A stretch of DNA of 64,000 nt from an uncultured Eubacteriales bacterium (lineage in GTDB: Bacteria > Acidobacteriota > Aminicenantia > Aminicenantales > Saccharicenantaceae). Both the position numbers and the translations under genes were made by a program. Under the pieces are notes generated by a model that was not told the origin of the DNA, did not search any database, and saw only the letters and a program-made list of their open reading frames with translations. This document shows, in pieces, positions 5,276-28,946 of the stretch. Position 1 is the first letter of the stretch. Every line of letters begins with the position of its first letter. The stretch is from the NCBI GenBank assembly GCA_964523615.1, contig CAZFZU010000006.1, positions 3,761 through 67,760 of the forward strand. Reading direction: 5' to 3'.

Positions 5276-7464
5276 TACCGGCCGCGTCCGCCGCGGTCGC
5301 GTCCGCCCCGGCGGTCCGGGCCGTGGTCGCGGGACGGGCGCTGGGGCTCCGGGCGCGGCGTCGACTCGGGGTTCTCGCCGCCGCCCGGCTCGCAGGCCTT
5401 CTTGCTCAGCCGGATCTTGTTGTCGGCCGGGTCGATGCTGACGACCTTGACCGTCACCGTGTCGCCCAGGTGGAGGACGTCGTGGATGCTGGCGATGCGG
5501 TAGGGGGCGACCTCGGAGATGTGCAGCAGGCCGACCAGGTTGGGCATGATCTCGACGAAGGCCCCGTACTCCTCGAGCCGGACGATCTTGCCGGTGTAGG
5601 TCTGGCCGAGCTCGGCCTCGGCCGTCAGGTCGAGGATCATCTGCTTGGCCGCCTCGGCGGCCGACATGTCGGTCGAGGCGATGAGGATCTTGCCGTCCTC
5701 CTCGATGTCGATCTTGGCCCCGGTCTGGCTGACGATCTTCTTGATGATCTTGCCGGCGGGGCCGATGACCTCGCCGACCTTCTCGGGATTGATGTTGAGG
5801 ATGAGGATGCGCGGCGCGTAGACGGAGATGTCCGGGCGCGGCGCGGCGATGGTCTCCGTCATGCGGGCCAGGACCTTGAGCCGGGCGGCCTTGGACTTGG
5901 CCATGATCTCGCGGAGCATGGGCAGCGTGACACAGGCGATCTTGAGGTCGAGCTGGATGGCCGTGACGCCCTTCTCGGTGCCGGCCATCTTGAAGTCCAT
6001 GTCGCCGAAGTGGTCTTCCAGGCCGGCGATGTCGGTCAGGATGGCGTAGGGGCCGTCCGCGGAGGTGACCAGGCCCATGGCGATGCCGGCCACGATCATC
6101 TTGAGGGGCACGCCGGCGTCCATCAGGGCCAGGATGCCGCCGCAGACGGTGGCCTGAGAAGAAGAGCCGTTGCTCTCCAGGATGTCGGAGACGATGCGGA
6201 TGGTGTAGGGGAAGGTCTCGATGTCGGGGATGGCCGGCAGGATGGACTTCTCGGCCAGGGCGCCGTGCCCGATCTCGCGGCGGCCGGGGGCCCTCAGGAA
6301 GCCGACCTCGCCGACCGAGAAGGACGGGAAGTTGTAGTGGAGCATGAAGCGCTTCTTCGATTCCTCGCCCAGGCTGTCGAGCCGCTGGGCGTCCTCGAAG
6401 GTGCCCAGGGTGACGGTGGCCAGGGCCTGCGTCTCGCCGCGGGTGAACAGGGCCGAGCCGTGGGTCCGGGTCAGCAGCCCGACCTCGGCCGTGATGGGCC
6501 GGATGTCGTCGAAACCGCGGCCGTCGGTCCGCAGGTTCTTCTTGAGGACGAGCTCGCGGAAGAGCTTCTCCTCGAGCTTGGAGAACAGCCCCTTGAGCTC
6601 GAGCTTGTCCTCGGGCTTGTCCTCGGGGACGGCGGCCAGGGCGGCCTCGCGGACCGCGAACAGGGCGGCCTCGCTGGCCTTCTTGCCCTTGACCTGCATG
6701 GCCTCGAGCAGGGCCGGGCCGTGCTCGCGCTCGACCCGGGCCAGCTTCTCGGCGTCCACGGGCTTGACGGTGAAGGCCCGCTTCTTGATGCCGAGCTGGG
6801 CGAAGAGGTCCTTCTGGGCCTTGATGATGCGCTGGTTCTCGCGGTGGGCCAGCTCCAGGCCCTCGAGGACGAGGTCCTCGCCGATCTCCTGGGCGCCGGC
6901 CTCGATCATGATGACGCCGTCCTCGTTGCTGACGACGGTCATGTTGAGCGGGCTGCGGTCGAGCTCCTTGTCGGTCGGGTTGACGGCGAGGGCGCCGTCG
7001 ACGAGGCCGACCTTGACGGCGCCGAGGGGCGTCGTGAAGGGGATGTCGGAGAAGTACAGGGCGCAGGAGGCGCCGATGACGCCGAGCGTGTCGGGCTCGC
7101 TCTCGAGGTCGGCCGACAGGAGCAGGCCGACGATCTGGGTGTCGTAGAAGTAGCCCTCGGGGAAGAGCGGCCGGATGGGCCGGTCGATCAGGCGGGCCAT
7201 GAGGATCTCCCGCTCCGAGGGCCGGCCCTCGCGCTTGAAGAAGCCGCCGGGGATCTTGCCGGCCGCGTAGGTGTTCTCGCGGTAATCGACGATGAGGGGC
7301 AGGAAGTCCTTGCCCTCCTTGAGCTCCTTGCGGGACGTGGCCGTGACCAGCATCATCGTGTCGCCGTAGCGGACGACGGCCGAGCCGTCGGCCTGCTTGG
7401 CGATCCGGCCGATCTCGACGCTGAGGGTCCTCTTGTTGATCTCTAGACTGATAGTGTGGGACAT
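5272..7464 (-). CDS. pnp: Polyribonucleotide nucleotidyltransferase
   Basis: GGFFKREGRP, HGSALFTRGETQ, RREIGHG, ESNGSSS, GDMDFK; KH and S1 domains; directly downstream of rpsO. Confidence 0.98.
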   Translation of the reverse strand: MSHTISLEINKRTLSVEIGRIAKQADGSAVVRYGDTMMLVTATSRKELKEGKDFLPLIVDYRENTYAAGKIPGGFFKREGRPSEREILMARLIDRPIRPLFPEGYFYDTQIVGLLLSADLESEPDTLGVIGASCALYFSDIPFTTPLGAVKVGLVDGALAVNPTDKELDRSPLNMTVVSNEDGVIMIEAGAQEIGEDLVLEGLELAHRENQRIIKAQKDLFAQLGIKKRAFTVKPVDAEKLARVEREHGPALLEAMQVKGKKASEAALFAVREAALAAVPEDKPEDKLELKGLFSKLEEKLFRELVLKKNLRTDGRGFDDIRPITAEVGLLTRTHGSALFTRGETQALATVTLGTFEDAQRLDSLGEESKKRFMLHYNFPSFSVGEVGFLRAPGRREIGHGALAEKSILPAIPDIETFPYTIRIVSDILESNGSSSQATVCGGILALMDAGVPLKMIVAGIAMGLVTSADGPYAILTDIAGLEDHFGDMDFKMAGTEKGVTAIQLDLKIACVTLPMLREIMAKSKAARLKVLARMTETIAAPRPDISVYAPRILILNINPEKVGEVIGPAGKIIKKIVSQTGAKIDIEEDGKILIASTDMSAAEAAKQMILDLTAEAELGQTYTGKIVRLEEYGAFVEIMPNLVGLLHISEVAPYRIASIHDVLHLGDTVTVKVVSIDPADNKIRLSKKACEPGGGENPESTPRPEPQRPSRDHGPDRRGGRDRGGRGRY

Positions 7465-19106: not shown

Positions 19107-19655
19107 TTACTTCTTGACGGGGGGCGTCGCGGCCTTGGACTGGTCGTAGCGCCGGATGACCTCGTCGGTGATGTCGATCGTCGGGCTGGCCGTGACGACG
19201 CCGCTCGACATGGCGTCGAGGACGAGGTCGAGGCCGCGCTCCTTGGCCAGGTTCTCGATGACGACGACCATCTCGCCGCGGATCTTGTTGATGAGGTTGT
19301 TGGCGAAGGCCTGCCCGTCGCGGGTGGCGTCCTCTTCGTAGCGCTTGCGCTCGGTCGACTTCTTCTCGATGTCGGACTGGATGCCCGCCAGGGCCTCGTT
19401 GGTCATCGTCAGCCGTCCCGTCGAGAGCTTGTTCTCGAGCAGCCGGATGGCGTCGTCGAGCTTCTGGATGTCGTTCTTGATCTTGGTGTCGCGGTCCTGC
19501 ATCTGGGCCAGGGCCTTCTTGCCTTCGGCGCAGGTCTCGAACGCCTTCTGGGAGTTGATGATGGCCACCTTGCTCACCTGCTGGGCGTACGTCGCGCCGA
19601 CGACGGCCAGGACGAACAGGATGACGAGGGGGGCGAGAGTGCGGAATCTGTTCAT
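19107..19655 (-). CDS. skp: OmpH/Skp outer-membrane chaperone
   Basis: Signal peptide, KVAIINSQKAF, coiled coil, GLDLVLD, DITDEVI. Confidence 0.9.
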   Translation of the reverse strand: MNRFRTLAPLVILFVLAVVGATYAQQVSKVAIINSQKAFETCAEGKKALAQMQDRDTKIKNDIQKLDDAIRLLENKLSTGRLTMTNEALAGIQSDIEKKSTERKRYEEDATRDGQAFANNLINKIRGEMVVVIENLAKERGLDLVLDAMSSGVVTASPTIDITDEVIRRYDQSKAATPPVKK

Positions 19656-20860: not shown

Positions 20861-21688
20861 TCAGATCTCGACCTTGAGGACGCCCTTCAGCGCGAAACCG
20901 AGGGCGATCGACAGGACGAGGTAGGCGACGAGCCAGTGGACGTTCGAACCGAGCACCGGAAGGCCGGCGGCCGGGTAGAGGACCTCGACGGAACGGATGG
21001 GTCCGCCTCCGGGCAGAGGGGGTTCGCCGGGGAAGAGGACGCGCTTCCCGAAGGAGCCCCGGGACGCCAGCGCGGAGATCCGGGCCAGCCGGTCCCCGCC
21101 GGCGACGACGGTCTTGCCGAAGGCCAGGGAGCCGGCCCGGACGACGAGGCGTCCCGACCCGGGCCCGACGGCCCGGACGCGCCAGACGGCTTCGCCCAGG
21201 TCGGCGACGCGGACGACGGGGGACGTGACCTCGATGAACCCGGGAGTCTCGAGGGCCAGGTCGAGCGAGGCGGGATCGACGCCCGGCTCGAAGCGGGCCT
21301 TGACCAGGGTCTCCCGCCCCGGCGAGAGCGGCGCCCGGTCGTACCAGACCGAGAGCTGGGCCAGGATGAGGACGAGCGGCACGATCATGACGGCCAGGGG
21401 CCGCAGGTTGGCGGCAAGATAGGCCAGGTTGGCCTTGAGCACGCCGGCCTGGGCCGACAGGGTCACCCGCATGTCGTCCTTGTACAACCGCATCTCCAGC
21501 AGGTGGGCCTTGATGCGGTCCTTGGCCCGGCGGATGGCGGCCTGGTTCGAGGTCAGCTTGTAGACCTCGAGCATGAGCAGGGCCGTCAGGAGCGAGACGG
21601 CGATCAGCCCGGCCCACGGGGACATCCCCCGGAAGGGCCAGAGGACCGCCCCGACGAGCCCGCCGAAGACGACGTTGACCGCGTGCAT
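20861..21688 (-). CDS. DUF106/EMC3/TMCO1-like (Oxa1-superfamily) three-TM membrane protein with inserted soluble domain
   Basis: ATG 21688 after GAGGA. TM1 (GLIAVSLLTALLML), basic coiled coil (NQAAIRRAKDRIKAHLL), TM2 beginning RPLAVMIVPLVLIL, beta-rich insert, terminal TM3 (WLVAYLVLSIALGFALK). Confidence 0.6.
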   Translation of the reverse strand: MHAVNVVFGGLVGAVLWPFRGMSPWAGLIAVSLLTALLMLEVYKLTSNQAAIRRAKDRIKAHLLEMRLYKDDMRVTLSAQAGVLKANLAYLAANLRPLAVMIVPLVLILAQLSVWYDRAPLSPGRETLVKARFEPGVDPASLDLALETPGFIEVTSPVVRVADLGEAVWRVRAVGPGSGRLVVRAGSLAFGKTVVAGGDRLARISALASRGSFGKRVLFPGEPPLPGGGPIRSVEVLYPAAGLPVLGSNVHWLVAYLVLSIALGFALKGVLKVEI

Positions 21689-21701
21689 ATGATCGATCCT
21701 C

Positions 21702-21784
21702 AACCTGGATTAGTCATGAAAACGCCGTGTTCCTCCATCACAACAGACGATCCAAGACCGGGAATCTCATGAATCGTCCAGGTT
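21702..21784. repeat. 18-bp imperfect inverted repeat spanning the intergenic gap
   Basis: AACCTGGATTAGTCATGA (21702-21719) and TCATGAATCGTCCAGGTT (21767-21784); 15/18 match, each arm containing TCATGA. Confidence 0.7.
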
Positions 21785-21974
21785 AGCCGATGTAGCCAAG
21801 CCCCTTGAGCTTCTTCTTGATCTCCTCTTCGGAGTCGGCCTCCTCGATCTTGGCCACTTCTTTCTCGAGGCAGTGGGCGACGAACTCCTCGACCGAGGAG
21901 TAGCCGGACATCTCGGCGTACTTCTTGATCTTGGCGAAGAGAGCCTTGTCGACGGCGACTTTCACGGTGGCCAT
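21783..21974 (-). CDS. 63-aa ribbon-helix-helix-like protein with C-terminal LKGLGYI tail
   Basis: AAGGAG RBS; VKVAV strand, two helices joined by GYSSVEEF; ends EEEIKKKLKGLGYIG. Confidence 0.85.
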   Translation of the reverse strand: MATVKVAVDKALFAKIKKYAEMSGYSSVEEFVAHCLEKEVAKIEEADSEEEIKKKLKGLGYIG

Positions 21975-21992: not shown

Positions 21993-24008
21993 TCAGGTCT
22001 TGGCGAGAACGTCCCGGCCGATCATGCCGGCCGGCTTCTCGGCGTCGAAGAGGCTCAGCACGGAGGCCGTCAAGTCCTCCAGGGCCGGGGCCTCGGCCGT
22101 GAACTTCCTGTTCGCGAAGGCGATGCCCGGCAGGACGTCCGGGGCCGACATGTGGTCGCCGCTCCAGCGCTGGGTGTTGTCCTCGAGGACTTCGCGCGGG
22201 AAGCCGCCGAGCGGCGACTGCCAGGAGATGCGGTAGCCCGGGGCGAAGCCCAGGACGATGTCCGGGGCCTGCTCCAGGTTGGGGCCGCGGTAGGCCTCTT
22301 TGGCGACGAAGGCCCTGCGGACGACCTGATCGCCCGTGACGGGGTCCCGCAAGGCCTCGAGCCGGCGGACGATCTCCCGGACGAGATTGTCCTTGTCGGC
22401 TCCCGGCTCCACGGCGCCCTGGCCCTCGCGCCCGCGCTCGTTGATGTAGAGGCCGTTGAGGCCCATGCCGTAGGCCCGCGTCTTCGACCAGTCCGTGTTG
22501 TCGAAGTAGGCCGACTCCTCCTGCTTCCAGGGCCGTTTCAACCGGTGGAAACCCTCGCGGACGAGCCAGGTGTTGAGGTTGAAGCCGCGGCGGAAGGTGT
22601 TGAAGCCGTGGTCCGACATGACCAGGACGACCGTGTCCTTGTCGGCTTTTTTCAAGGCCAGGTCGAGGGCCCGGTCCATTTCGCCGTAGGTCCGGGCGAT
22701 GACGTCGCCGAAGCGGGCGGCCAGCTTTTCGTCGTAGGCCGGGTGGCCGGGATCGGTCAGGCGCCAGAACATGTGCTGGCGTTGGTCGGCGTTGGAAAAG
22801 TAGTAGAACAGCAGCCCCGCGTCGAGGCGGCCGAGCTCGTATTCGAGCATGGCCATGCTCTCCTCGTAGACGAGGTTGTCGAGATGGAGGAACTCCTCCT
22901 CGTCGAGAACGCCGTTCTCCAGGGCGCTCGTGTCGGCCGGCAGCCCCTTGGTGAAATAGGGGCCGAAGCGCCTCTCGAGGTCCCGGGCGTAGGACTCCGG
23001 CGTGGACAGGGGCAGGGCCGGGCGGGCCGGGTCCATGTGGATGGGCGAGACGTAGAGCTTGAACTTGGGCCGGACCTCCTTGAGGTAGAACAGGCAGATG
23101 CCGTGGACGCTCTGGGTCGGCATGAGCCCGAAGCGGACCCTCTGCCAGCCGCTCCACTCGCCCTGGCGGAGGACGAACTCGCGGCCCTGGAGGACGATCT
23201 TGGCCGCGGCGTGCTCGGGGTCGAGGAAGACCTGGAAGGGCACGGACGCCTCCGGGGAGCCGACCTTGAAGGCGTTCGTCGGGCCCTTGAGCTCGGCCTC
23301 GACCCGGTCGCCGACGACGAAGACGTCGTAGACCCGGCCGCCGCCGCCGGCCTCCTGGACGACGGACGCCGAGGCGTTCGTGTAATAGCTGAAGATGCCG
23401 TACGAGCCCTTGAGGTCGGGCGTGTTCATGCCGGCGAGCGTCCGCTGCTCCGACTCGACGGGCGGGTAGTTCGAGGGCATCTTGAAGACGGTCGCCGGGA
23501 CGCCGCGGTCCTCGAGGACCTGCCAGAAGGCCCGGCCCTTGCGGAGGTTCCGGACCTGGCCGCCCGAGAGGGGGATGAGCGTCTTGCCGAGGCGGATGGT
23601 CTTCCCGCCGCCGGTCGTCTCGGTGGCCGAGAAGACGGGGACGTAGGTCTTGGGATCGCGGTTGAAGAAATCGAAGATGGCGTGTCCGCCGGGGTCCATG
23701 CCGGTGATGAAGTTGGACCAGGCCACCGGCGTCTGGGGCGGCAGGCTGGTGCCGAGCGGCCGGAAGTCCCCGCCCCGCTCGAGGAGCCGCCGGAAGGCCG
23801 GCAGGCGGCCCTCGTCGATCCAGCGTTTCGTCAGGACGGGGTCGAGGCCGTCGAGACCGAGCACGATGACCTTCTTCCCGTCCCGGGACGGGCCGAACGA
23901 GCGGGGGGAGAGCCGGGCCGCTCCGCCCAGCCCCAGGGCCGCCGAGGCGGCCACGCCGGCCTTGAGGAATTCACGCCGCGAGAGCCGCGCGCGCCCGTGT
24001 CCGCTCAT
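21993..24008 (-). CDS. Alkaline phosphatase superfamily (COG3379-like phosphodiesterase) protein, Tat signal
   Basis: ATGA overlap at 24005-24008; SRREFLK; GLDG, PPQT(nucleophile)PVAW, DQRQH, SDHG, GDH. Confidence 0.9.
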   Translation of the reverse strand: MSGHGRARLSRREFLKAGVAASAALGLGGAARLSPRSFGPSRDGKKVIVLGLDGLDPVLTKRWIDEGRLPAFRRLLERGGDFRPLGTSLPPQTPVAWSNFITGMDPGGHAIFDFFNRDPKTYVPVFSATETTGGGKTIRLGKTLIPLSGGQVRNLRKGRAFWQVLEDRGVPATVFKMPSNYPPVESEQRTLAGMNTPDLKGSYGIFSYYTNASASVVQEAGGGGRVYDVFVVGDRVEAELKGPTNAFKVGSPEASVPFQVFLDPEHAAAKIVLQGREFVLRQGEWSGWQRVRFGLMPTQSVHGICLFYLKEVRPKFKLYVSPIHMDPARPALPLSTPESYARDLERRFGPYFTKGLPADTSALENGVLDEEEFLHLDNLVYEESMAMLEYELGRLDAGLLFYYFSNADQRQHMFWRLTDPGHPAYDEKLAARFGDVIARTYGEMDRALDLALKKADKDTVVLVMSDHGFNTFRRGFNLNTWLVREGFHRLKRPWKQEESAYFDNTDWSKTRAYGMGLNGLYINERGREGQGAVEPGADKDNLVREIVRRLEALRDPVTGDQVVRRAFVAKEAYRGPNLEQAPDIVLGFAPGYRISWQSPLGGFPREVLEDNTQRWSGDHMSAPDVLPGIAFANRKFTAEAPALEDLTASVLSLFDAEKPAGMIGRDVLAKT

Positions 24009-26131
24009 GCTTTCTTTCCCTTCGCTTCCCGCGAGAGGCCGGCGACGTCGACCAGGCCCCGGCCGTCCATATGGGCCGGCGGGGTCAGGCCGAAGAGCTC
24101 CAGGACGGTCGGGGCCAGGTCCATGATGGAGGGCTGGTCGGTCCTGAGGCGCAGGCTCGAGAACAGCACGCCCGGGACCAGGGCCGGGTCGATGCAGTGG
24201 TCGCCGCTCCAGGCCTTGACGTTGTCCTCGATGACCGTGTCGTCGACGATGCCCGTGACGCCGTCCCAGGAGGCCCGATATCCCTCGTTGTACCCGATGA
24301 TGAGGTCCGGGGCGTTGTCCCGGTACGGCCCGGCGTAGACGGCGTCGCGGTCGTAGACGCGGGTGACGGCCGGGGGGCCGCTCGGCCCGTCGCGCAGGGC
24401 CTCGAGCTTGCGGGCCAGCTCGGCCTTGAGGGCCGCGGCTTCGGCGCCGGGGGCGACGGTGCCGCGCGCCTCCCGGTCCCTGAGGTTGAGGTAGATGCCG
24501 CCGAGCCCCAGGCCGTAGGCCCGGGTCCGCCCCCAGTCGACGTCCTTGAACCATTCGCCGCTCGTCTCCCGTCCCTCGTTCAGGGCCAGGTAGCCGTTCT
24601 TCCGGAGCCAGGAGTTGAGGTTGACCCCCCGGCGGAAAGACTTGAAGCCATGGTCGGACATGACGAACAGGGCGTCGCGGGGGCCGAGCCCCTCGGCGAC
24701 CCGGCCGACGAGCCCGTCCATCTTCTTATAGAGATCCTCGACGACGGCCGCGCTCATCCGGGCCGGACCGGCCTTGAGGGCCGGATGGGCTTTGTCGAGG
24801 TAGCGGAAGAACATGTGCTGGACGCTGTCGGTCGTCTCGAAGACGATCGCGACCAGGCCCTTCGAAGTCTTGGCCAGGGCGTTGCGGAGCATGGCCTCCC
24901 AGGCCTCGTGGTTGTCGTAGGTCAGCTCGAGGAAGGCCTTCTCGTCGAGGGCGCCCTCGTTGAGGGCCCAGGTGTCGTTGGCCTCGCCCAGGGTGATGTA
25001 ACGGCCCAGGAGCTTGGCCAGGTAGACCGAGTAGATGAACGGATGGGAGATGGGCAGGGCGGGCTTCTCGGGGTCGATGTTGAGGGGCGTGACGTACATC
25101 TCGAACGGGGGCTCGAGCGAGGCGATGCGGAAGCGGCAGATGCCCCGGACCTTGACCCCCAGGCCGGCCCGGAAAACGACCGGCGTCCACGGGCTGAAGG
25201 TCTTCTCTTTGAGGAAGAACGGCTTCTCGCGGCCGACGGCGACGCGGGCCCCGCCGGCCGCCCGGTCGATGGCCACGGTCAGGGGGACGCGGATCTCCTC
25301 GGGGACCCTGAGCAGCGAGTTCTCCGGGCCCGCGAGCTCGGTCCGGATGACGTCGCCCTCGCGGCGGACCAGGACGGCCACGCCGCCCTCGTGCTTGCGG
25401 ACCTTCTCGGCGTCCTCGGTGAAGAAGGCGAACGTCCCCTGGCTGCCTTTGAGGTCGGGGGCGCACATGCCGGAGAGCAGGTGGCCCTTGAACTTCTCCG
25501 GCGGGAAGGTGATGGGCACGCGCAGGACCGTGGCCGGCACGCCCTTCTCGCCGAGGACCTTCCAGAACGGCACGCTCCGGCGCATCCCCCGGACCTCGGG
25601 CTTGGAGAGCGGGACGAGATACTTGCCCAGGGCCAAGGTCCGCTTGGGCCGGCCGATGCGGGCCGAGGACAGGTCCGGGAGATAGGTCCGGGGGTCGCGG
25701 CTGAGGAAGTCGAAGATGTTGTGCTTGGAGGGCTCCGAGCCGGTCATAAAGGACGACCAGGCGACGGGGGAGATGGCCGGGGTCGTCGTCCGCAGGCGGG
25801 CGTAGGCCCCGTCCTTGCGCAGTCGGGCCAGGTTCGGGAGCTTGCCCTCGGCCATGAACTTCTCGGCCAGCGTCGGTTCCAAGCCGTCGAGCCCGAGGAT
25901 GACGACGCGGTCGACCCGGCTGCGGCCGAGGGCCCGCCGGCCGCGGACCGTCCGCCACAGGAAGCGGAACGGCCAGGACAGGAACGAGAACAGGGCCAGG
26001 ACGAAGGTCAGGAAGAGGACCAGGAAGGAGGACAGGAAGGCGAAGCCGGCCCCAGGCCCGATGTAGCCGGCGAGAGGGGAGGCCAGGGCGAGGAGGGCGG
26101 CCGCCGCGAGGATCGTGCCCGTCCGCTTCAT
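24005..26131 (-). CDS. Alkaline phosphatase superfamily protein with signal peptide, YIGPG motif and TM anchor
   Basis: TGATG overlap at 26129-26133; MKRTGTILAAAALLALASPLAG-YIGPGAGFAF-TM-basic stretch; GLDG, PAISPVAW, DSVQH, SDHG, GDH. Confidence 0.9.
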   Translation of the reverse strand: MKRTGTILAAAALLALASPLAGYIGPGAGFAFLSSFLVLFLTFVLALFSFLSWPFRFLWRTVRGRRALGRSRVDRVVILGLDGLEPTLAEKFMAEGKLPNLARLRKDGAYARLRTTTPAISPVAWSSFMTGSEPSKHNIFDFLSRDPRTYLPDLSSARIGRPKRTLALGKYLVPLSKPEVRGMRRSVPFWKVLGEKGVPATVLRVPITFPPEKFKGHLLSGMCAPDLKGSQGTFAFFTEDAEKVRKHEGGVAVLVRREGDVIRTELAGPENSLLRVPEEIRVPLTVAIDRAAGGARVAVGREKPFFLKEKTFSPWTPVVFRAGLGVKVRGICRFRIASLEPPFEMYVTPLNIDPEKPALPISHPFIYSVYLAKLLGRYITLGEANDTWALNEGALDEKAFLELTYDNHEAWEAMLRNALAKTSKGLVAIVFETTDSVQHMFFRYLDKAHPALKAGPARMSAAVVEDLYKKMDGLVGRVAEGLGPRDALFVMSDHGFKSFRRGVNLNSWLRKNGYLALNEGRETSGEWFKDVDWGRTRAYGLGLGGIYLNLRDREARGTVAPGAEAAALKAELARKLEALRDGPSGPPAVTRVYDRDAVYAGPYRDNAPDLIIGYNEGYRASWDGVTGIVDDTVIEDNVKAWSGDHCIDPALVPGVLFSSLRLRTDQPSIMDLAPTVLELFGLTPPAHMDGRGLVDVAGLSREAKGKKA

Positions 26132-27423
26132 CAGTAGTTCTTGAGGATGATCGGGGCCAGGTCGGCGATGCGGAGGTCGTCGCCGTGGTCCTCGACCGAC
26201 CAGAAGAAGGCGTCGTCCCAGGTGTGCATGCCTTGGAGGCCGGAGCGGCCGAAGACCTCCTTCCGGCGGACCGAGCCCTTCATGTCGAAGCCGGGCTCGC
26301 CCACGACGACGAGGTCCGGGCCCTTGGCGGCGTGCGGACCGTGGTAGACCTCCTCGTTGAAGAAGACCTTCTTGACGACGCGCCGGCCCTCGTAGGTCAG
26401 CTGCTCGAGCTTGCCGGCGATCTCCTGGCGCAGGGCCCGGCGGGCGCTCCGCGCGATCGTGCCCTTGGGGAAGCGGTCCTTGAGGTGGATGTAGATCCGG
26501 TTGGGGTCGAGAGCGAAGGCCTTGGTCCGGCCGTGGATGTCGCCGAGCCCCGTCGGCTCGGGCTTGAGGAAACGGAGGTAGCCGTTCTGCTCGAGCCAAG
26601 CGTTGAGATAGACCTCCTGGACGATGCCCGTGAAGCCGTGGTCGGACAGGATGTAGAAACCGGCGTAGGTGTTGGTGAGCTTGTGGTAGGCGGCGACGAT
26701 CTTGCCGATGAGACGGTCGATGTGGCGGTAGAAGTCGAGAAAGCGCTCATGGGAGGGGTGGCCGGGGTCCTCGTAGGCGCGCCACAGGAAGTGGTGGAGA
26801 CGGTCGGTCCCCGTGACGACGTACTCGAAGTAGTCCCAGTCCCCTTCCCAGAAGTGGTTGAGGGCTTTTTGCCCCCCGGCCATGGTCTTGGTCAGCTCCT
26901 GCCAGAGGACCTCGGGGCTCTCGCGGCATTTGAGGATGTCGACGTCGATCTGGTAGCCCATCTGCTCGAGGGCGGCCCGGTAGGTCGTCGGCCAGACGGC
27001 CTTGGCCAGCTCCAGGGCCACGAAACCGGACACGAGGACGCCCTCGATCTCGCGGGCCGGGTAGGTCGAGGGCTGGTTGATGACGATGCTCCGGCGGCCC
27101 TTGGCGCCCAGGCGGTCCCAGAGGGTGGGGGCCTTGACGTCGAGGTAATTGGGGAAGCGGATGTCGTAGGATCGGGGCTTGAAGTCGGTGAAGCCGAAGA
27201 TCCCATGGCTGCCCGAGTCCGTCCCGGTCATGAAATCCGTCCAGGACACGGCCGAGATCTCGGGCAGGCTGGCCTTCATCCGGTGGAGCCGGCCGATGTC
27301 CATGAGGCGGGCCATGGTCGACATGATCCCCCGGCGGGCCAGCTCGGCGATCATGCCGTAGGGCACGCCGTCGAGGCCGATGACGCAGGCTTTTTCAGTC
27401 TTTTTTCGCTTCGCTACGGCCAT
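26131..27423 (-). CDS. Alkaline phosphatase superfamily protein, no export signal
   Basis: GLDG, PEISAVSW, DRLHH, SDHG, GMH; lacks the long central insert of the two paralogs. Confidence 0.9.
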   Translation of the reverse strand: MAVAKRKKTEKACVIGLDGVPYGMIAELARRGIMSTMARLMDIGRLHRMKASLPEISAVSWTDFMTGTDSGSHGIFGFTDFKPRSYDIRFPNYLDVKAPTLWDRLGAKGRRSIVINQPSTYPAREIEGVLVSGFVALELAKAVWPTTYRAALEQMGYQIDVDILKCRESPEVLWQELTKTMAGGQKALNHFWEGDWDYFEYVVTGTDRLHHFLWRAYEDPGHPSHERFLDFYRHIDRLIGKIVAAYHKLTNTYAGFYILSDHGFTGIVQEVYLNAWLEQNGYLRFLKPEPTGLGDIHGRTKAFALDPNRIYIHLKDRFPKGTIARSARRALRQEIAGKLEQLTYEGRRVVKKVFFNEEVYHGPHAAKGPDLVVVGEPGFDMKGSVRRKEVFGRSGLQGMHTWDDAFFWSVEDHGDDLRIADLAPIILKNY

Positions 27424-27482: not shown

Positions 27483-27545
27483 CCGGTCCGGGTTGACTTT
27501 GCCGGGGCGGAGGGATTAAATGGGGGCTTCGAAAAGAGAGGCGAC

Positions 27546-28946
27546 ATGACAGGCAGGGACAGACTCCGCGACCGGTTGGTCCGGGAATACCGCAAGAAGA
27601 CGGCCCGCAGCCGGACGGTCTACCGCCGGGCCCAGAAGGTCATGATCGAGGGCGGCAGCCATTCCATCCGGCTCTGGCGCCCGTACCCGTTCTTCGCGGC
27701 CGGGGCCGAGGGGCCCTTCGTCCGCGACGTCGACGGCAACACCTACATCGACTACTGGCAGGGGCACTACGCCAACATCCTGGGCCACAATCCCGGCTTC
27801 GTCCGGCGGGGCATGGCCGCGAGCGTCGGCCGGGGCGCCCTCCACACGGGCTTCGAGGCCGGCCACCAGATCGAGCTGGCCGAGGCCCTCGTCCGGGCCG
27901 TCGGCGGCGGCGAGGGCAAGGTCCGCTTCACGACCTCCGGCACCCTGGCCACGATGTACGCCGTCATGCTGGCCCAGGGGCTGACCGGCCGCGACCTCGT
28001 GCTCAAGGTCGGCGGCGGCTGGCACGGGGCCTCGCCCTACCTTCTTAAAGGCGTCAAGTACCATCCGGGCTCGGGCTTCGAGGGCCCCGAATCGGCCGGC
28101 CTGCTCGACGACATCGTCCGGCGGACCCTGGTCACCCGGTTCGACGACGGCGACGACCTGGCCAGGATCATGGCCGCCCACGGCGACCGCATCGCCTGTT
28201 TCATCGTCGAGCCCTTCCTCGGGGTCGGCGGCTTCCTGGCGGCCTCCCGCGAATACCTGGCCCTGGCCCGCGAGCTGACGGCCCGCCACGGGGTCCTGCT
28301 CGTCTTCGACGAGATCATCTCCGGCTTCCGATTCGCCCCGGCCGGCGTCCAGACCCTCTACGGGATCCGGCCCGATCTGTCGACCTTCGGCAAGATCATC
28401 GGCGGCGGCCACGCCGTGGCCGCGGTCGTCGGACCGGCCCGGACGATGGAGGCCTGCGAGCGCGACCTCGGCGGCCGCGGCCGGGTCATGTTCGAAGGCG
28501 GCACCTTCTCGTCCCACTCCGAATACATGCGGGCCGGGTTGCTCATGCTCGGCCGCCTGGCCGCCCGGGCCGCGACGGTCTACCCGAAGCTGGCCCGCGC
28601 GGGCGAGACCCTGCGGCGGGGCATCGAGGAGGCCTTCGCCGCCGCCGGCCTGAGGGCCCGCTGCACGGGCGGCGGCAACGACGTCGTCCGCGGCAGCTCG
28701 ATGTTCATGGTCCATTTCCCGAAAGGGGAGGAAGGGCGCGTCGACCGGCCCGAGACCCTCCAGGACGCCGGGCGCATGGACCTCGCCCTGCGGGAGGACC
28801 TGCTCAAGCTGGCCCTGCTCGTCAACGGCGTCAACGTCGTCCACGGCGGCGGGGCGGTCTCCGCGGCCCACGGCCCGAAGGAGATCGCGGCGACCTTGGC
28901 CGCCTACGGCGAGGCGGCCCGGCTGATCGCGGACCATGGGGATTGA
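27546..28946 (+). CDS. Aminotransferase class III (glutamate-1-semialdehyde aminomutase-like)
   Basis: DVDGNTYIDY, FTTSGT, WHG, FDEIISGFR, TFGKIIGGG. Confidence 0.85.
   Translation: MTGRDRLRDRLVREYRKKTARSRTVYRRAQKVMIEGGSHSIRLWRPYPFFAAGAEGPFVRDVDGNTYIDYWQGHYANILGHNPGFVRRGMAASVGRGALHTGFEAGHQIELAEALVRAVGGGEGKVRFTTSGTLATMYAVMLAQGLTGRDLVLKVGGGWHGASPYLLKGVKYHPGSGFEGPESAGLLDDIVRRTLVTRFDDGDDLARIMAAHGDRIACFIVEPFLGVGGFLAASREYLALARELTARHGVLLVFDEIISGFRFAPAGVQTLYGIRPDLSTFGKIIGGGHAVAAVVGPARTMEACERDLGGRGRVMFEGGTFSSHSEYMRAGLLMLGRLAARAATVYPKLARAGETLRRGIEEAFAAAGLRARCTGGGNDVVRGSSMFMVHFPKGEEGRVDRPETLQDAGRMDLALREDLLKLALLVNGVNVVHGGGAVSAAHGPKEIAATLAAYGEAARLIADHGD

Follow-up and report, generated by a model that had tools for sequence, protein, structure and literature searches.

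The 275-aa protein encoded on the minus strand at 20861..21688 of the window (the whole 64,000-nucleotide stretch of DNA analysed) is supported by sequence comparisons as a bacterial homolog of the DUF106/EMC3/TMCO1 type within the Oxa1 superfamily, with a predicted extracytoplasmic insert. Its gene belongs to a conserved module that also encodes a ribbon-helix-helix (RHH) protein of 63 aa and phosphodiesterases (PDE1, PDE2 and PDE3) of PF01663, the alkaline-phosphatase (AlkP) superfamily. Our preferred reading, held with slightly less than even confidence, is that this inner-membrane protein is a dedicated partner of co-transcribed PDE2, inserting the anchor of that enzyme and maybe holding it afterwards.

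The DUF106-like gene and its predicted architecture

The open reading frame begins with an ATG at 21688, ends with a stop codon at 20861-20863, and was assigned from the ORF itself, its family and its homology to PF01956 and MJ0480. It is a conserved, transcribed gene and more than a chance ORF. At E<=1e-3 the family comprised 2,703 clusters at 50% identity, with members nearly all 265-290 aa long and matching the window protein end to end. Gene boundaries were identical in public assemblies. Metatranscriptome contigs from sludge covered the gene, and one contig bridged its junction with the RHH gene. An alternative TTG start at 21703 had no homolog support; homologs begin M-H/T-x-V-N.

Family members were found in Acidobacteriota, Bdellovibrionota, Myxococcota, Gemmatimonadota, Dadabacteria, Binatia and others, according to taxon labels that are the MAG submitters' own and include some obvious placeholders. 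The loci are labelled as bacterial MAGs of several phyla, making the host neither archaeal nor eukaryotic by label. Size (265-282 aa) and architecture were retained in every phylum sampled.

AlphaFold2 (AF2) modelling of the window protein with a 28-sequence alignment gave a mean pLDDT of 81.9 and a pTM of 0.66. AF2 secondary structure and conservation delimited an N-terminal helix (aa 2-19) and TM1 (aa 24-43) at 21560..21685 (minus strand, as for all features described here). P24, S32 and L40 are conserved in the TM1 region, which is followed by a T-S-N-Q motif (aa 46-49). A basic coiled-coil hairpin, predicted to be cytoplasmic from AF2, charge count and alignment to MJ0480, occupies aa 44-95 (21404..21559), with modelled helices at 49-68 and 73-93 (pLDDT about 88-90). 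TM2 (aa 96-117; 21338..21403) was placed by an AF2 helix at 95-117 and by conservation; it begins R96-P-L-A-V-M-I-V-P104, in which P97 is invariant and P104 almost so. The TM2-TM3 loop (aa 118-250; 20939..21337) is predicted from AF2 and Foldseek to form a periplasmic Ig-like beta-sandwich, with strands within 126-250 (pLDDT about 90) and the conserved motifs W169-R and P220-G-E-x-P-L-P. The protein ends in TM3 and a short C-terminal tail (aa 251-275; 20864..20938; H-W-L-V-A-Y-L-V-L-S...L-K-G-V-L-K-V-E-I), with a modelled helix at 252-271 and WLVAYLVLS at residues 252-260. Conserved polar or helix-breaking residues in the TMs are S32, T35, P97, P104, Q111 and S260. The sequence-only reading had described TM1, a basic coiled coil, TM2 starting RPLAVMIVP, a beta domain of ~130 aa and TM3, and both AF2 and the sequence agree with this order.

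Foldseek searches with the full model returned Ig-like beta-sandwiches only (SbsC, filamin, SusA N-domain; E about 6e-3), all aligned to the insert. An insert-deleted, single-sequence AF2 model was poor (pLDDT 68, pTM 0.29), with one continuous helix at 49-118. An insert of 125-130 aa occupied the TM2-TM3 loop in every member examined, in all phyla sampled. Between aa 44 and 96 there are 11 K/R residues against 4 D/E, an excess that argues for a cytoplasmic hairpin, and a hairpin in the cytoplasm would put the beta domain outside the membrane. A three-TM core with N-out/C-in topology is thus predicted from the AF2 helices and the positive-inside count, for the hairpin as well as the C-terminal tail (KGVLKVEI).

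Homology to DUF106 and comparison with known insertases

Pfam searches matched PF01956 in 10 of 47 diverse family members (best E 1.4e-6), and every other family in at most three of the 47. One member (P0127) scored above the PF01956 gathering score (28.6 vs 27.1 bits), and the family consensus sequence scored below a single natural member. The window protein alone had no Pfam match at E<=1, PF02096 included; PF02096 was likewise absent among the 25 most-matched Pfam families listed for the 47 members. Beyond PF01956, the DUF106-like protein had no match in Pfam, NCBIfam or PADLOC. When family profiles were searched against 177,635 PDB sequences, MJ0480/Ylp1 was the only match, at E 0.0038 and then at 1.2e-8; these searches gave no direct match to EMC3, TMCO1 or Get1/WRB. 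With the MJ0480 fragment from the PDB alignment as query there were only 8 candidates, one of which matched (P0290).

Successive hhalign comparisons with archaeal PF01956 proteins gave probabilities of 93.5%, 96.6% and 98.1%. Against 113 archaeal proteins, the value was 96.6% with the insert kept. With the insert removed, the profile comparison with PF01956 that the sequence-only reading had suggested reached 98.1% (E 8e-14, 138 colinear columns), and the alignment began at the N-terminal helix and ran through all three TMs and the C-terminal tail as far as the last residue. Identity to archaeal members was only about 20%. The SNQ of the T-S-N-Q motif lined up with the archaeal '...ATDQ' motif, and TM2 with archaeal 'MRPxxxTxIP' and MJ0480 'FRPMIYTWVP'. 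TM3 alone aligned to archaeal TM3 'sWFWFYLi~SiIFSsILRKv~kV' (E 2.9e-5) and weakly to MJ0480 173-197. In MJ0480 and in DPANN-archaeal (Pacearchaeota/Nanoarchaeota) proteins it was the coiled-coil region that aligned with the hairpin. The DUF106/EMC3/TMCO1-like homology noted from the sequence was thus borne out by Pfam, PDB profile searches and hhalign alike.

We consider it very improbable that the protein is not a true homolog and that its resemblance to DUF106 arose by convergence or is an artefact of composition, hydrophobic helices being combined with a charged coiled coil. Such composition can inflate profile scores, the low identity to archaeal members would be in keeping with this explanation, and so would the lack of a Pfam match for the window protein alone. 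However, MJ0480 was twice the single match in the PDB set, the alignment without the insert is colinear from end to end with an independent match for TM3, and the same landmark residues coincide in both families.

The order of elements is the same in archaeal Ylp1/MJ0480, a DUF106 protein (PF01956, COG1422, arCOG02673; PDB 5C8J), and in the window protein: an N-terminal helix, TM1, a cytoplasmic coiled-coil hairpin, a TM2 that contains R-P and a Pro in mid-helix, TM3, and a C-tail that is short and basic. The N-out/C-in topology of Ylp1/MJ0480 is predicted for the window protein as well. Ribosome binding and substrate crosslinking have been shown for MJ0480. Archaeal DUF106 proteins are compact (about 180-210 aa) with a short TM2-TM3 loop (about 45 aa in MJ0480, from aligned positions), in contrast to the ~130-aa Ig-like domain of the window protein. 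Because this domain fills the loop, the window protein appears to be a variant rather than an ordinary DUF106 member. The eukaryotic ER proteins EMC3, TMCO1 and Get1/WRB resemble it in having a three-TM core and a cytosolic coiled coil, and EMC3 and TMCO1 belong to PF01956. The window protein shares its superfamily, and presumably its kind of activity, with bacterial YidC (PF02096). Gram-negative YidC carries a large periplasmic beta-sandwich domain (P1), which separates TM1 from TM2 and so precedes the conserved five-TM core, whereas the window protein has three TMs and its beta-sandwich is between the last two core helices. Genomic setting differs too: YidC is a housekeeping protein and the window gene is operon-bound; archaeal DUF106 genes lie beside secY and ribosomal genes (PMC5898192), and the window gene lies in a phosphodiesterase operon. 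The window module has an RHH protein and AlkP-superfamily partners and no EMC6/Get2-type gene. Clients of the EMC3/TMCO1/Get1 type are simple, with small translocated segments (PMC5868721), and the PDE2 anchor fits this description.

The phosphodiesterase module and the PDE2 anchor

All genes of the module lie on the minus strand. PDE3 (26131..27423) is a 430-aa PF01663 paralog, identified from Pfam and sequence, which has no signal sequence and is predicted to be cytoplasmic. PDE2 (24005..26131), identified from Pfam and public gene calls, is a 708-aa PF01663 enzyme with an N-terminal membrane anchor and is the proposed client or partner. PDE1 (21993..24008), whose boundaries are those of public gene calls, is a 671-aa paralog with a twin-arginine (TAT) signal (SRREFLKAG), predicted to be periplasmic from Pfam matches to PF01663 and TAT_signal; its ortholog in the distant locus L081 has a lipobox in place of the TAT signal. 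ATGA overlaps join PDE3 to PDE2 and PDE2 to PDE1, the stop codon of PDE3 overlapping the ATG of PDE2 and the ATG of PDE1 overlapping the PDE2 stop codon.

The RHH gene (21783..21974), assigned from Pfam RHH_1 and its orthologs, usually abuts the DUF106-like gene. The RHH_1 match was weak for the RHH protein of the window, and 11 of 30 orthologs matched (best E 6.2e-7). The C-terminus of the RHH protein is invariant (L-x-G-L-G-Y-[IL]-x). In the PDB, the RHH profile weakly matched ribosomal uL13 and the alpha C-terminal domain of RNA polymerase (E about 0.01), which we regard as chance matches. In 58 of 76 loci the DUF106-like start lay -1 to +6 nt from the RHH stop. At this junction the window has a strain-specific intergenic segment of 94 nt, with imperfect inverted repeats of 16 nt at its ends (21689..21782, minus strand), where relatives have 5-6 nt.

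Linkage was observed in both directions. Starting from the DUF106-like protein, PDE2 and PDE1 were found upstream on the same strand in 76 of 80 loci; PDE3 was present in 75 of these related loci and the RHH gene in 74, and the RHH gene also recurred across phyla. In L081 and L082, which hold distant members of about 32-35% identity, PF01663 genes and a gene for a 62-65-aa protein were again nearby. Gene order was changed and the outer flanks were different in L081; the L082 contig is 3.4 kb long and lacks outer flanks. A search with a single distant protein (P0227) gave one locus. Starting from the PDE2 anchor motif, and counting only loci with at least 5.5 kb downstream, a DUF106-like gene was found on the same strand in 31 of 34. 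It came directly after PDE2(-RHH) or after PDE2-PDE1-RHH, and many loci consisted of PDE2-(RHH)-DUF106-like only, with no PDE1 between. Three PDE2 loci with ample flanks (L086, L094 and L111) had no DUF106-like gene nearby and no diverged copy detectable with either HMM. PADLOC identified nothing, so a known defence system is unlikely.

Public annotations name PDE2 'alkaline phosphatase family protein/nucleotide pyrophosphatase'. Its catalytic part had no PDB relative at E<=0.01 and only faint PhnA-like matches in NCBIfam. The anchor region (25916..26131), defined from sequence and conservation, consists of a signal-peptide-like first hydrophobic segment, H1 (aa 1-22), followed by Y23-I-G-P-G-A-G-F-A-F, then by a TM and then by an Arg-rich flank (RFLWRTVRGRRALGRSR). 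Mean pairwise identity was 0.956 for the tail and motif and 0.855 for the TM, compared with 0.696 for the catalytic part, and the anchor ranked 26th by conservation among 661 windows of 24 residues. The Y-I-G-P-G-A-G-F motif and TM are conserved as strongly as the active-site segments.

H1 was present in 96 PDE2 orthologs and absent in 21 (about a fifth). Its end is mostly A-x-A or L-x-A, with the Tyr of the motif immediately following, and the 21 orthologs that lack it begin a few residues before this Tyr. Both forms are predicted to give the same short N-out tail. The sequence-only reading had described a short N-out tail before the AlkP TM; the tail is present, but it follows H1 and would be exposed only after cleavage. 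Two observations on the anchor speak against an insertion role. Conservation at the level of the active site suits a permanent TM-TM complex at least equally, and H1, found in most orthologs, could direct hairpin insertion by Sec/YidC without a special factor.

Possible roles of the DUF106-like protein and their significance

The proteins that the Oxa1 superfamily inserts are simple, having few TMs and small regions to translocate (PMC5868721). The sequence-only reading had raised the idea of a dedicated insertase or chaperone for the anchored AlkP enzyme, and this idea is strengthened by the two-way linkage across phyla and the very high conservation of the anchor. A three-TM protein of the DUF106/Ylp1/EMC3 type, rather than the YidC type, would sit in the inner membrane with its N-terminus out and its C-terminus in, the hairpin in the cytoplasm and the Ig-like domain (~130 aa) in the periplasmic TM2-TM3 loop. 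Mature PDE2 would start with an uncharged tail of 7 residues (Y-I-G-P-G-A-G); after it would come one TM, a flank rich in Arg/Lys and then, in the cytoplasm, the catalytic domain. In the most probable mechanism, the three-TM core would take the PDE2 anchor into the bilayer and flip its tiny N-tail to the periplasm, and the DUF106-like protein may retain the anchor afterwards. The Ig-like domain and the cytoplasmic RHH protein could provide extra contacts, for example with exported PDE1 or the coiled coil. The analysis shows homology, domain order, a predicted topology, linkage of the genes, conservation of the anchor and transcription. From these we infer that the protein acts as an insertase or holdase, that it has a hydrophilic groove, which client it serves, and what the Ig-like domain and the RHH protein do. 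A wider proposal, which we regard as possible and put forward more cautiously, is that this widespread bacterial three-TM Oxa1 branch is a paired insertase-client system for one N-tail-anchored AlkP enzyme, with the near-invariant YIGPGAGF-TM anchor recognised via the groove and/or the Ig-like domain and with the RHH protein as third component.

A somewhat less likely possibility, in our view, is that the protein is instead a permanent structural subunit and no insertase. The DUF106 fold would then serve to scaffold a phosphodiesterase complex that spans the membrane: the TMs would bind the PDE2 anchor, the Ig-like domain would dock PDE1, and the coiled coil would hold the RHH protein and/or PDE3. 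Anchor conservation like that of an active site is typical of stable helix-helix packing, and an Ig-like insert is a typical protein-binding fold. The presence of paralogs on both sides of the membrane (PDE1 with a TAT signal or lipobox, anchored PDE2, signal-less PDE3) and of an RHH protein with an invariant C-terminal peptide also suits such a complex. However, docking of PDE1 cannot be the core role, because many loci have no intervening PDE1, and all landmarks common to the archaeal insertase homologs are kept (SNQ/TDQ, R-P and P in TM2, the C-terminal tail). The scaffold also overlaps with insertion, as release of the client need not follow once an insertase has done its work.

Service as a general accessory insertase, a second housekeeping route that would act alongside YidC/Sec on many small membrane proteins, with an incidental or regulatory operon position, appears improbable. 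YidC, Ylp1, EMC3, Get1 and TMCO1 all serve many clients (PMC5868721), and transcripts in sludge metatranscriptomes would agree with such a role. Nevertheless, linkage to the YIGPGAGF-anchored enzyme persists across phyla despite changing gene order and flanks, and the adjoining secY and ribosomal genes of archaeal orthologs (PMC5898192) have no counterpart here. A little less probable again is another membrane function on the same fold, either a conduit for ions or small molecules or a ligand sensor regulating the phosphodiesterases through the Ig-like domain. A Ca2+-channel role has been ascribed to TMCO1 (PMC12385146; with discussion in PMC5868721), and an extracytoplasmic Ig-like domain could bind a ligand; against this, we found no sequence feature of a channel or signalling output domain, and no Pfam, NCBIfam or PADLOC family other than PF01956 was matched.

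In the papers searched, the three-TM lineage of DUF106/Ylp1, EMC3, TMCO1 and Get1 is presented as archaeal and eukaryotic, with bacteria using the five-TM YidC (PMC5868721, PMC8887752, PMC5898192), and the non-archaeal PF01956 sequences left out of one study were EMC3 and TMCO1 (10.1101/2020.12.20.422553). Our literature search found no description of a bacterial DUF106 branch and nothing relevant on Aminicenantes YidC or the anchor motif. A large bacterial family spanning multiple phyla bears on the diversification of the Oxa1 superfamily. The analysis also draws attention to an uncharacterised module of three phosphodiesterase paralogs, common among bacteria of sediment, soil and sludge. If the paired insertase-client reading is true, the DUF106 lineage would not be confined to archaea and eukaryotes, and the module would be a minimal, genetically defined model of client-specific insertion of the Oxa1 type. 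Through its constant association with a single enzyme whose N-out anchor is very simple, the family offers a candidate system of one insertase and one client with a sequence-defined recognition element, which is rare in the field and testable in E. coli.

The DUF106-like gene and its predicted membrane topology

The DUF106-like ORF occupies 20861-21688 on the minus strand, starts with ATG and encodes 275 aa. The window has a G+C content of 63-73% and contains numerous spurious antisense ORFs. Comparison with 1.84 billion cluster representatives returned 2,703 clusters at E≤1e-3 and 836 at E≤1e-30; nearly all were 265-290 aa long with end-to-end matches. The boundaries inferred here for the four upstream neighbours were those in public gene calls, and metatranscriptome contigs covered the gene. 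On these three grounds, the ORF is a genuine gene. Its nearest relatives came from MAGs labelled Candidatus Aminicenantes or Acidobacteriota (93% identity for the family protein P0001, 91% for locus L001), and the exact sequence was found again in anaerobic-digester and sludge metagenomes. Elsewhere in the window, a long ORF at 27516-28937 (minus strand) was a spurious antisense frame without a family match. The true gene opposite it (27546-28946, plus strand) resembles glutamate-1-semialdehyde 2,1-aminomutase (HemL; NCBIfam E 5e-79, under the equivalog cut-off).

An AlphaFold2 model built with 28 homologs (mean pLDDT 81.9, pTM 0.66) contained an N-terminal helix (aa 2-19), TM1 (aa 24-43), a helical hairpin (aa 49-68 and 73-93), TM2 (aa 95-117, beginning R96-P-L-A-V-M-I-V-P), a beta-rich domain with strands within aa 126-250 (pLDDT about 90) and TM3 (aa 252-271, WLVAYLVLS...). 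With 11 K/R and 4 D/E, the hairpin region is predicted to be cytoplasmic by the positive-inside rule. This would place the N-terminus and beta domain outside and the short KGVLKVEI tail inside. The ORF, model and charge count bore out every detail of the layout proposed in the sequence-only reading: TM1, a basic coiled coil, TM2, a beta-rich domain of ~130 aa and TM3. Foldseek with the whole model matched solely Ig-like beta-sandwiches (S-layer SbsC domains, filamin repeats and amylase N-domains; E about 6e-3), and every match fell on the beta-rich domain. We regard this ~130-aa Ig-like domain as an insertion in the TM2-TM3 loop. Single-sequence prediction of the insert-deleted protein was of low quality (pTM 0.29).

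Relationship to the DUF106/EMC3 family

Searched alone against Pfam and NCBIfam, the window protein gave no match. Among 47 family members (29-71% identity to it), 10 matched PF01956 (EMC3_TMCO1) and any other Pfam family was matched by at most three. P0127, one of these proteins, scored above the PF01956 gathering threshold (28.6 vs 27.1 bits, E 1.4e-6, profile positions 15-117). A close-homolog profile compared with all PDB sequences had archaeal MJ0480/Ylp1 (5C8J) as its sole match (E 0.0038). MJ0480 was again the sole match to a more diverse, insert-deleted profile (E 1.2e-8), with a second, weak stretch aligning with TM3. In hhalign comparisons, the family alignment reached 93.5% probability against one archaeal PF01956 protein and 96.6% (E 6.6e-10) against 113 from DPANN archaea (Pacearchaeota/Nanoarchaeota-type lineages), covering TM1, the coiled coil and TM2. 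Deletion of residues 121-245 raised the latter to 98.1% (E 8.1e-14); this alignment ran colinearly through 138 columns, beginning at the N-terminal helix and reaching the final residue. TM3 by itself gave E 2.9e-5 against the archaeal proteins. Landmarks common to the two families include T-S-N-Q after TM1 (archaeal A-T-D-Q), R/K-P and a second Pro in TM2, F-G-W ahead of TM3, a Ser within TM3 and the C-terminal L-[KR]-x-V-x-K-V. JGI automatic annotation calls many members 'uncharacterized membrane protein (DUF106 family)'. We take homology to PF01956 proteins to be established at the level of family profiles, and the earlier claim of a DUF106/EMC3/TMCO1-type homolog is supported at that level.

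DUF106 has been described as archaeal and eukaryotic (PMC5868721, PMC8887752, PMC5898192, 10.1101/2020.12.20.422553); in one of these studies, the excluded non-archaeal PF01956 sequences were EMC3 and TMCO1. In the part of the literature searched, we found nothing on bacterial DUF106, on the PDE2 anchor motif described below, or on Aminicenantes and YidC. The protein is homologous to the PF01956 family but differs from it in host domain of life, large loop insert and genomic context, and we therefore call it a departing homolog within a known kind, not a separate kind.

A conserved phosphodiesterase module

Four genes lie upstream on the same strand: three PF01663 (AlkP-superfamily) paralogs, PDE3 (26131-27423, without a signal sequence), PDE2 (24005-26131, with an N-terminal membrane anchor) and PDE1 (21993-24008, with a twin-arginine signal), and a gene for a 63-aa ribbon-helix-helix (RHH) protein (21783-21974). 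Public names for the PDE proteins are 'alkaline phosphatase family protein', 'nucleotide pyrophosphatase' and 'predicted AlkP superfamily phosphohydrolase/phosphomutase'. ATGA start/stop overlaps at PDE3/PDE2 (26129-26133) and PDE2/PDE1 (24005-24008) suggest translational coupling of the paralogs. The export signal of PDE1 is of the twin-arginine type in the window and of the lipoprotein type (…ALLTSC) in locus L081 (5424-7340); its compartment appears conserved, its export route not. Downstream lie an aminotransferase gene and an OmpH/Skp gene. The latter, two genes downstream (19107-19655, minus strand), had a contig depth of about 115 in sludge metatranscriptomes, compared with about 5 for the module genes.

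The RHH protein is part of the module in all phyla sampled. Its last residues are an invariant L-x-G-L-G-Y-[IL]-x, and it could be a regulator or structural adaptor. The spacing between its stop and the start of the DUF106-like gene is usually -1 to +6 nt, and the two genes are usually translationally coupled. In one Aminicenantes MAG (L049, about 5800-6825), the RHH frame continues without a break into that of the DUF106-like gene (...KGLGLHLLRTMGIVNL...); the two are either naturally fused or joined by a frameshift error of long-read assembly. In the window, 94 nt (21689-21782) lie between the RHH stop codon and the ATG of the DUF106-like gene, compared with 5-6 nt in close relatives L001-L003. 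This segment ends in 16-nt imperfect inverted repeats (CCTGGAnnnnTCATGA), with only two copies in the window, folds as a hairpin (-34 kcal/mol, z -1.64) and by eye seems lower in G+C than its flanks. About 20 sludge/digester metagenome runs contained it, one metatranscriptome contig spanned it, and a related strain from another run lacked it. It could have arisen as a miniature inverted-repeat insertion or could act as a regulatory hairpin.

Among 80 species-level genomes found via the DUF106-like protein (40-91% identity), 76 had PDE2 and PDE1, 75 had PDE3 and 74 had the RHH gene, all on the same strand; missing genes were mostly at contig ends. Two distant members were retrieved independently. 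L081 had the module again, with PDE3 relocated downstream and unrelated outer flanks (a PIN/PhdYeFM toxin-antitoxin pair and a sulfatase-TPR protein); on L082, a 3.4-kb contig, the DUF106-like gene was accompanied only by a PF01663 gene and a 62-aa gene.

In the reverse direction, the back-translated PDE2 anchor motif Y-[IV]-G-P-G-A-G-F-[AV]-F was scanned over 185,579 genomes and matched at least 120 stretches. Among the matches listed, a PF01663 ORF followed the motif wherever enough of the 8-kb block remained; two blocks ending <150 nt past the motif gave no PF01663 match. Downstream DNA extended for 5.5 kb or more in 34 of the listed loci, and 31 of these had the DUF106-like gene on the same strand. 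It lay 2.0-2.4 kb (PDE2-[RHH]-gene) or 4.0-4.6 kb (PDE2-PDE1-RHH-gene) downstream, and 1 kb upstream in two additional loci. From these arrangements, the core of the module consists of three genes, those for PDE2, the RHH protein and the DUF106-like protein. L086, L094 and L111 had a YIGPGAGF-anchored PDE2, >7 kb of downstream DNA and no DUF106-like gene nearby, even by HMM searches with relaxed settings; these genomes may encode the partner at another site or lack it. Positive loci among the matches listed carried the labels Bryobacterales, Terriglobia, Vicinamibacteria, Bdellovibrionota, Myxococcota, Gemmatimonadota, Dadabacteria, Binatia, Thermodesulfobacteriota, Eisenbacteria, Lentisphaerae and 'Tritonobacter'. 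Taxonomy follows MAG submitter labels, ignoring several evident placeholders from one bulk-binning project. The 265-282-aa architecture, including the insert, was identical across all labelled groups.

The PDE2 anchor and possible roles

In 45 loci found via the DUF106-like protein with a full-length PDE2 ORF bearing Y-[IVL]-GPGAG, mean pairwise identity was 0.956 for the tail and motif, 0.855 for the remaining TM and 0.696 for the catalytic part. The first 24-residue window ranked 26th of 661, on par with active-site segments. A first hydrophobic segment (H1) was present in 96 of 117 evaluable PDE2 orthologs, ending mostly in A-x-A or L-x-A just before the Tyr, which resembles a signal-peptidase site. 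The remaining 21 orthologs, chiefly from Bryobacterales and Terriglobia, start just 3-12 residues ahead of the Tyr. With or without H1, mature PDE2 would have a tiny uncharged N-out tail, cross the membrane through a TM with an Arg/Lys-rich flank behind it and place its catalytic domain in the cytoplasm. Papers defining the Oxa1 superfamily portray its translocon-independent clients as simple proteins that have few TMs and translocate only small regions (PMC5868721), a description that the predicted mature PDE2 fits.

A general housekeeping role is improbable because of the linkage to the PDE module. A channel or sensor has little support and is, if anything, slightly less probable still; lack of homology to DUF106, also with little support, is the least credible reading. 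We tentatively favour, at somewhat below even chances, an insertase or holdase dedicated to the anchor of PDE2. The nearest rival, which we hold to be rather unlikely, makes the protein a scaffold subunit that stays permanently in a membrane phosphodiesterase complex. That the anchor is so extremely conserved favours a lasting, sequence-specific contact; that the protein keeps all family landmarks favours retained insertase mechanics. The insertase/holdase and scaffold readings are not exclusive.
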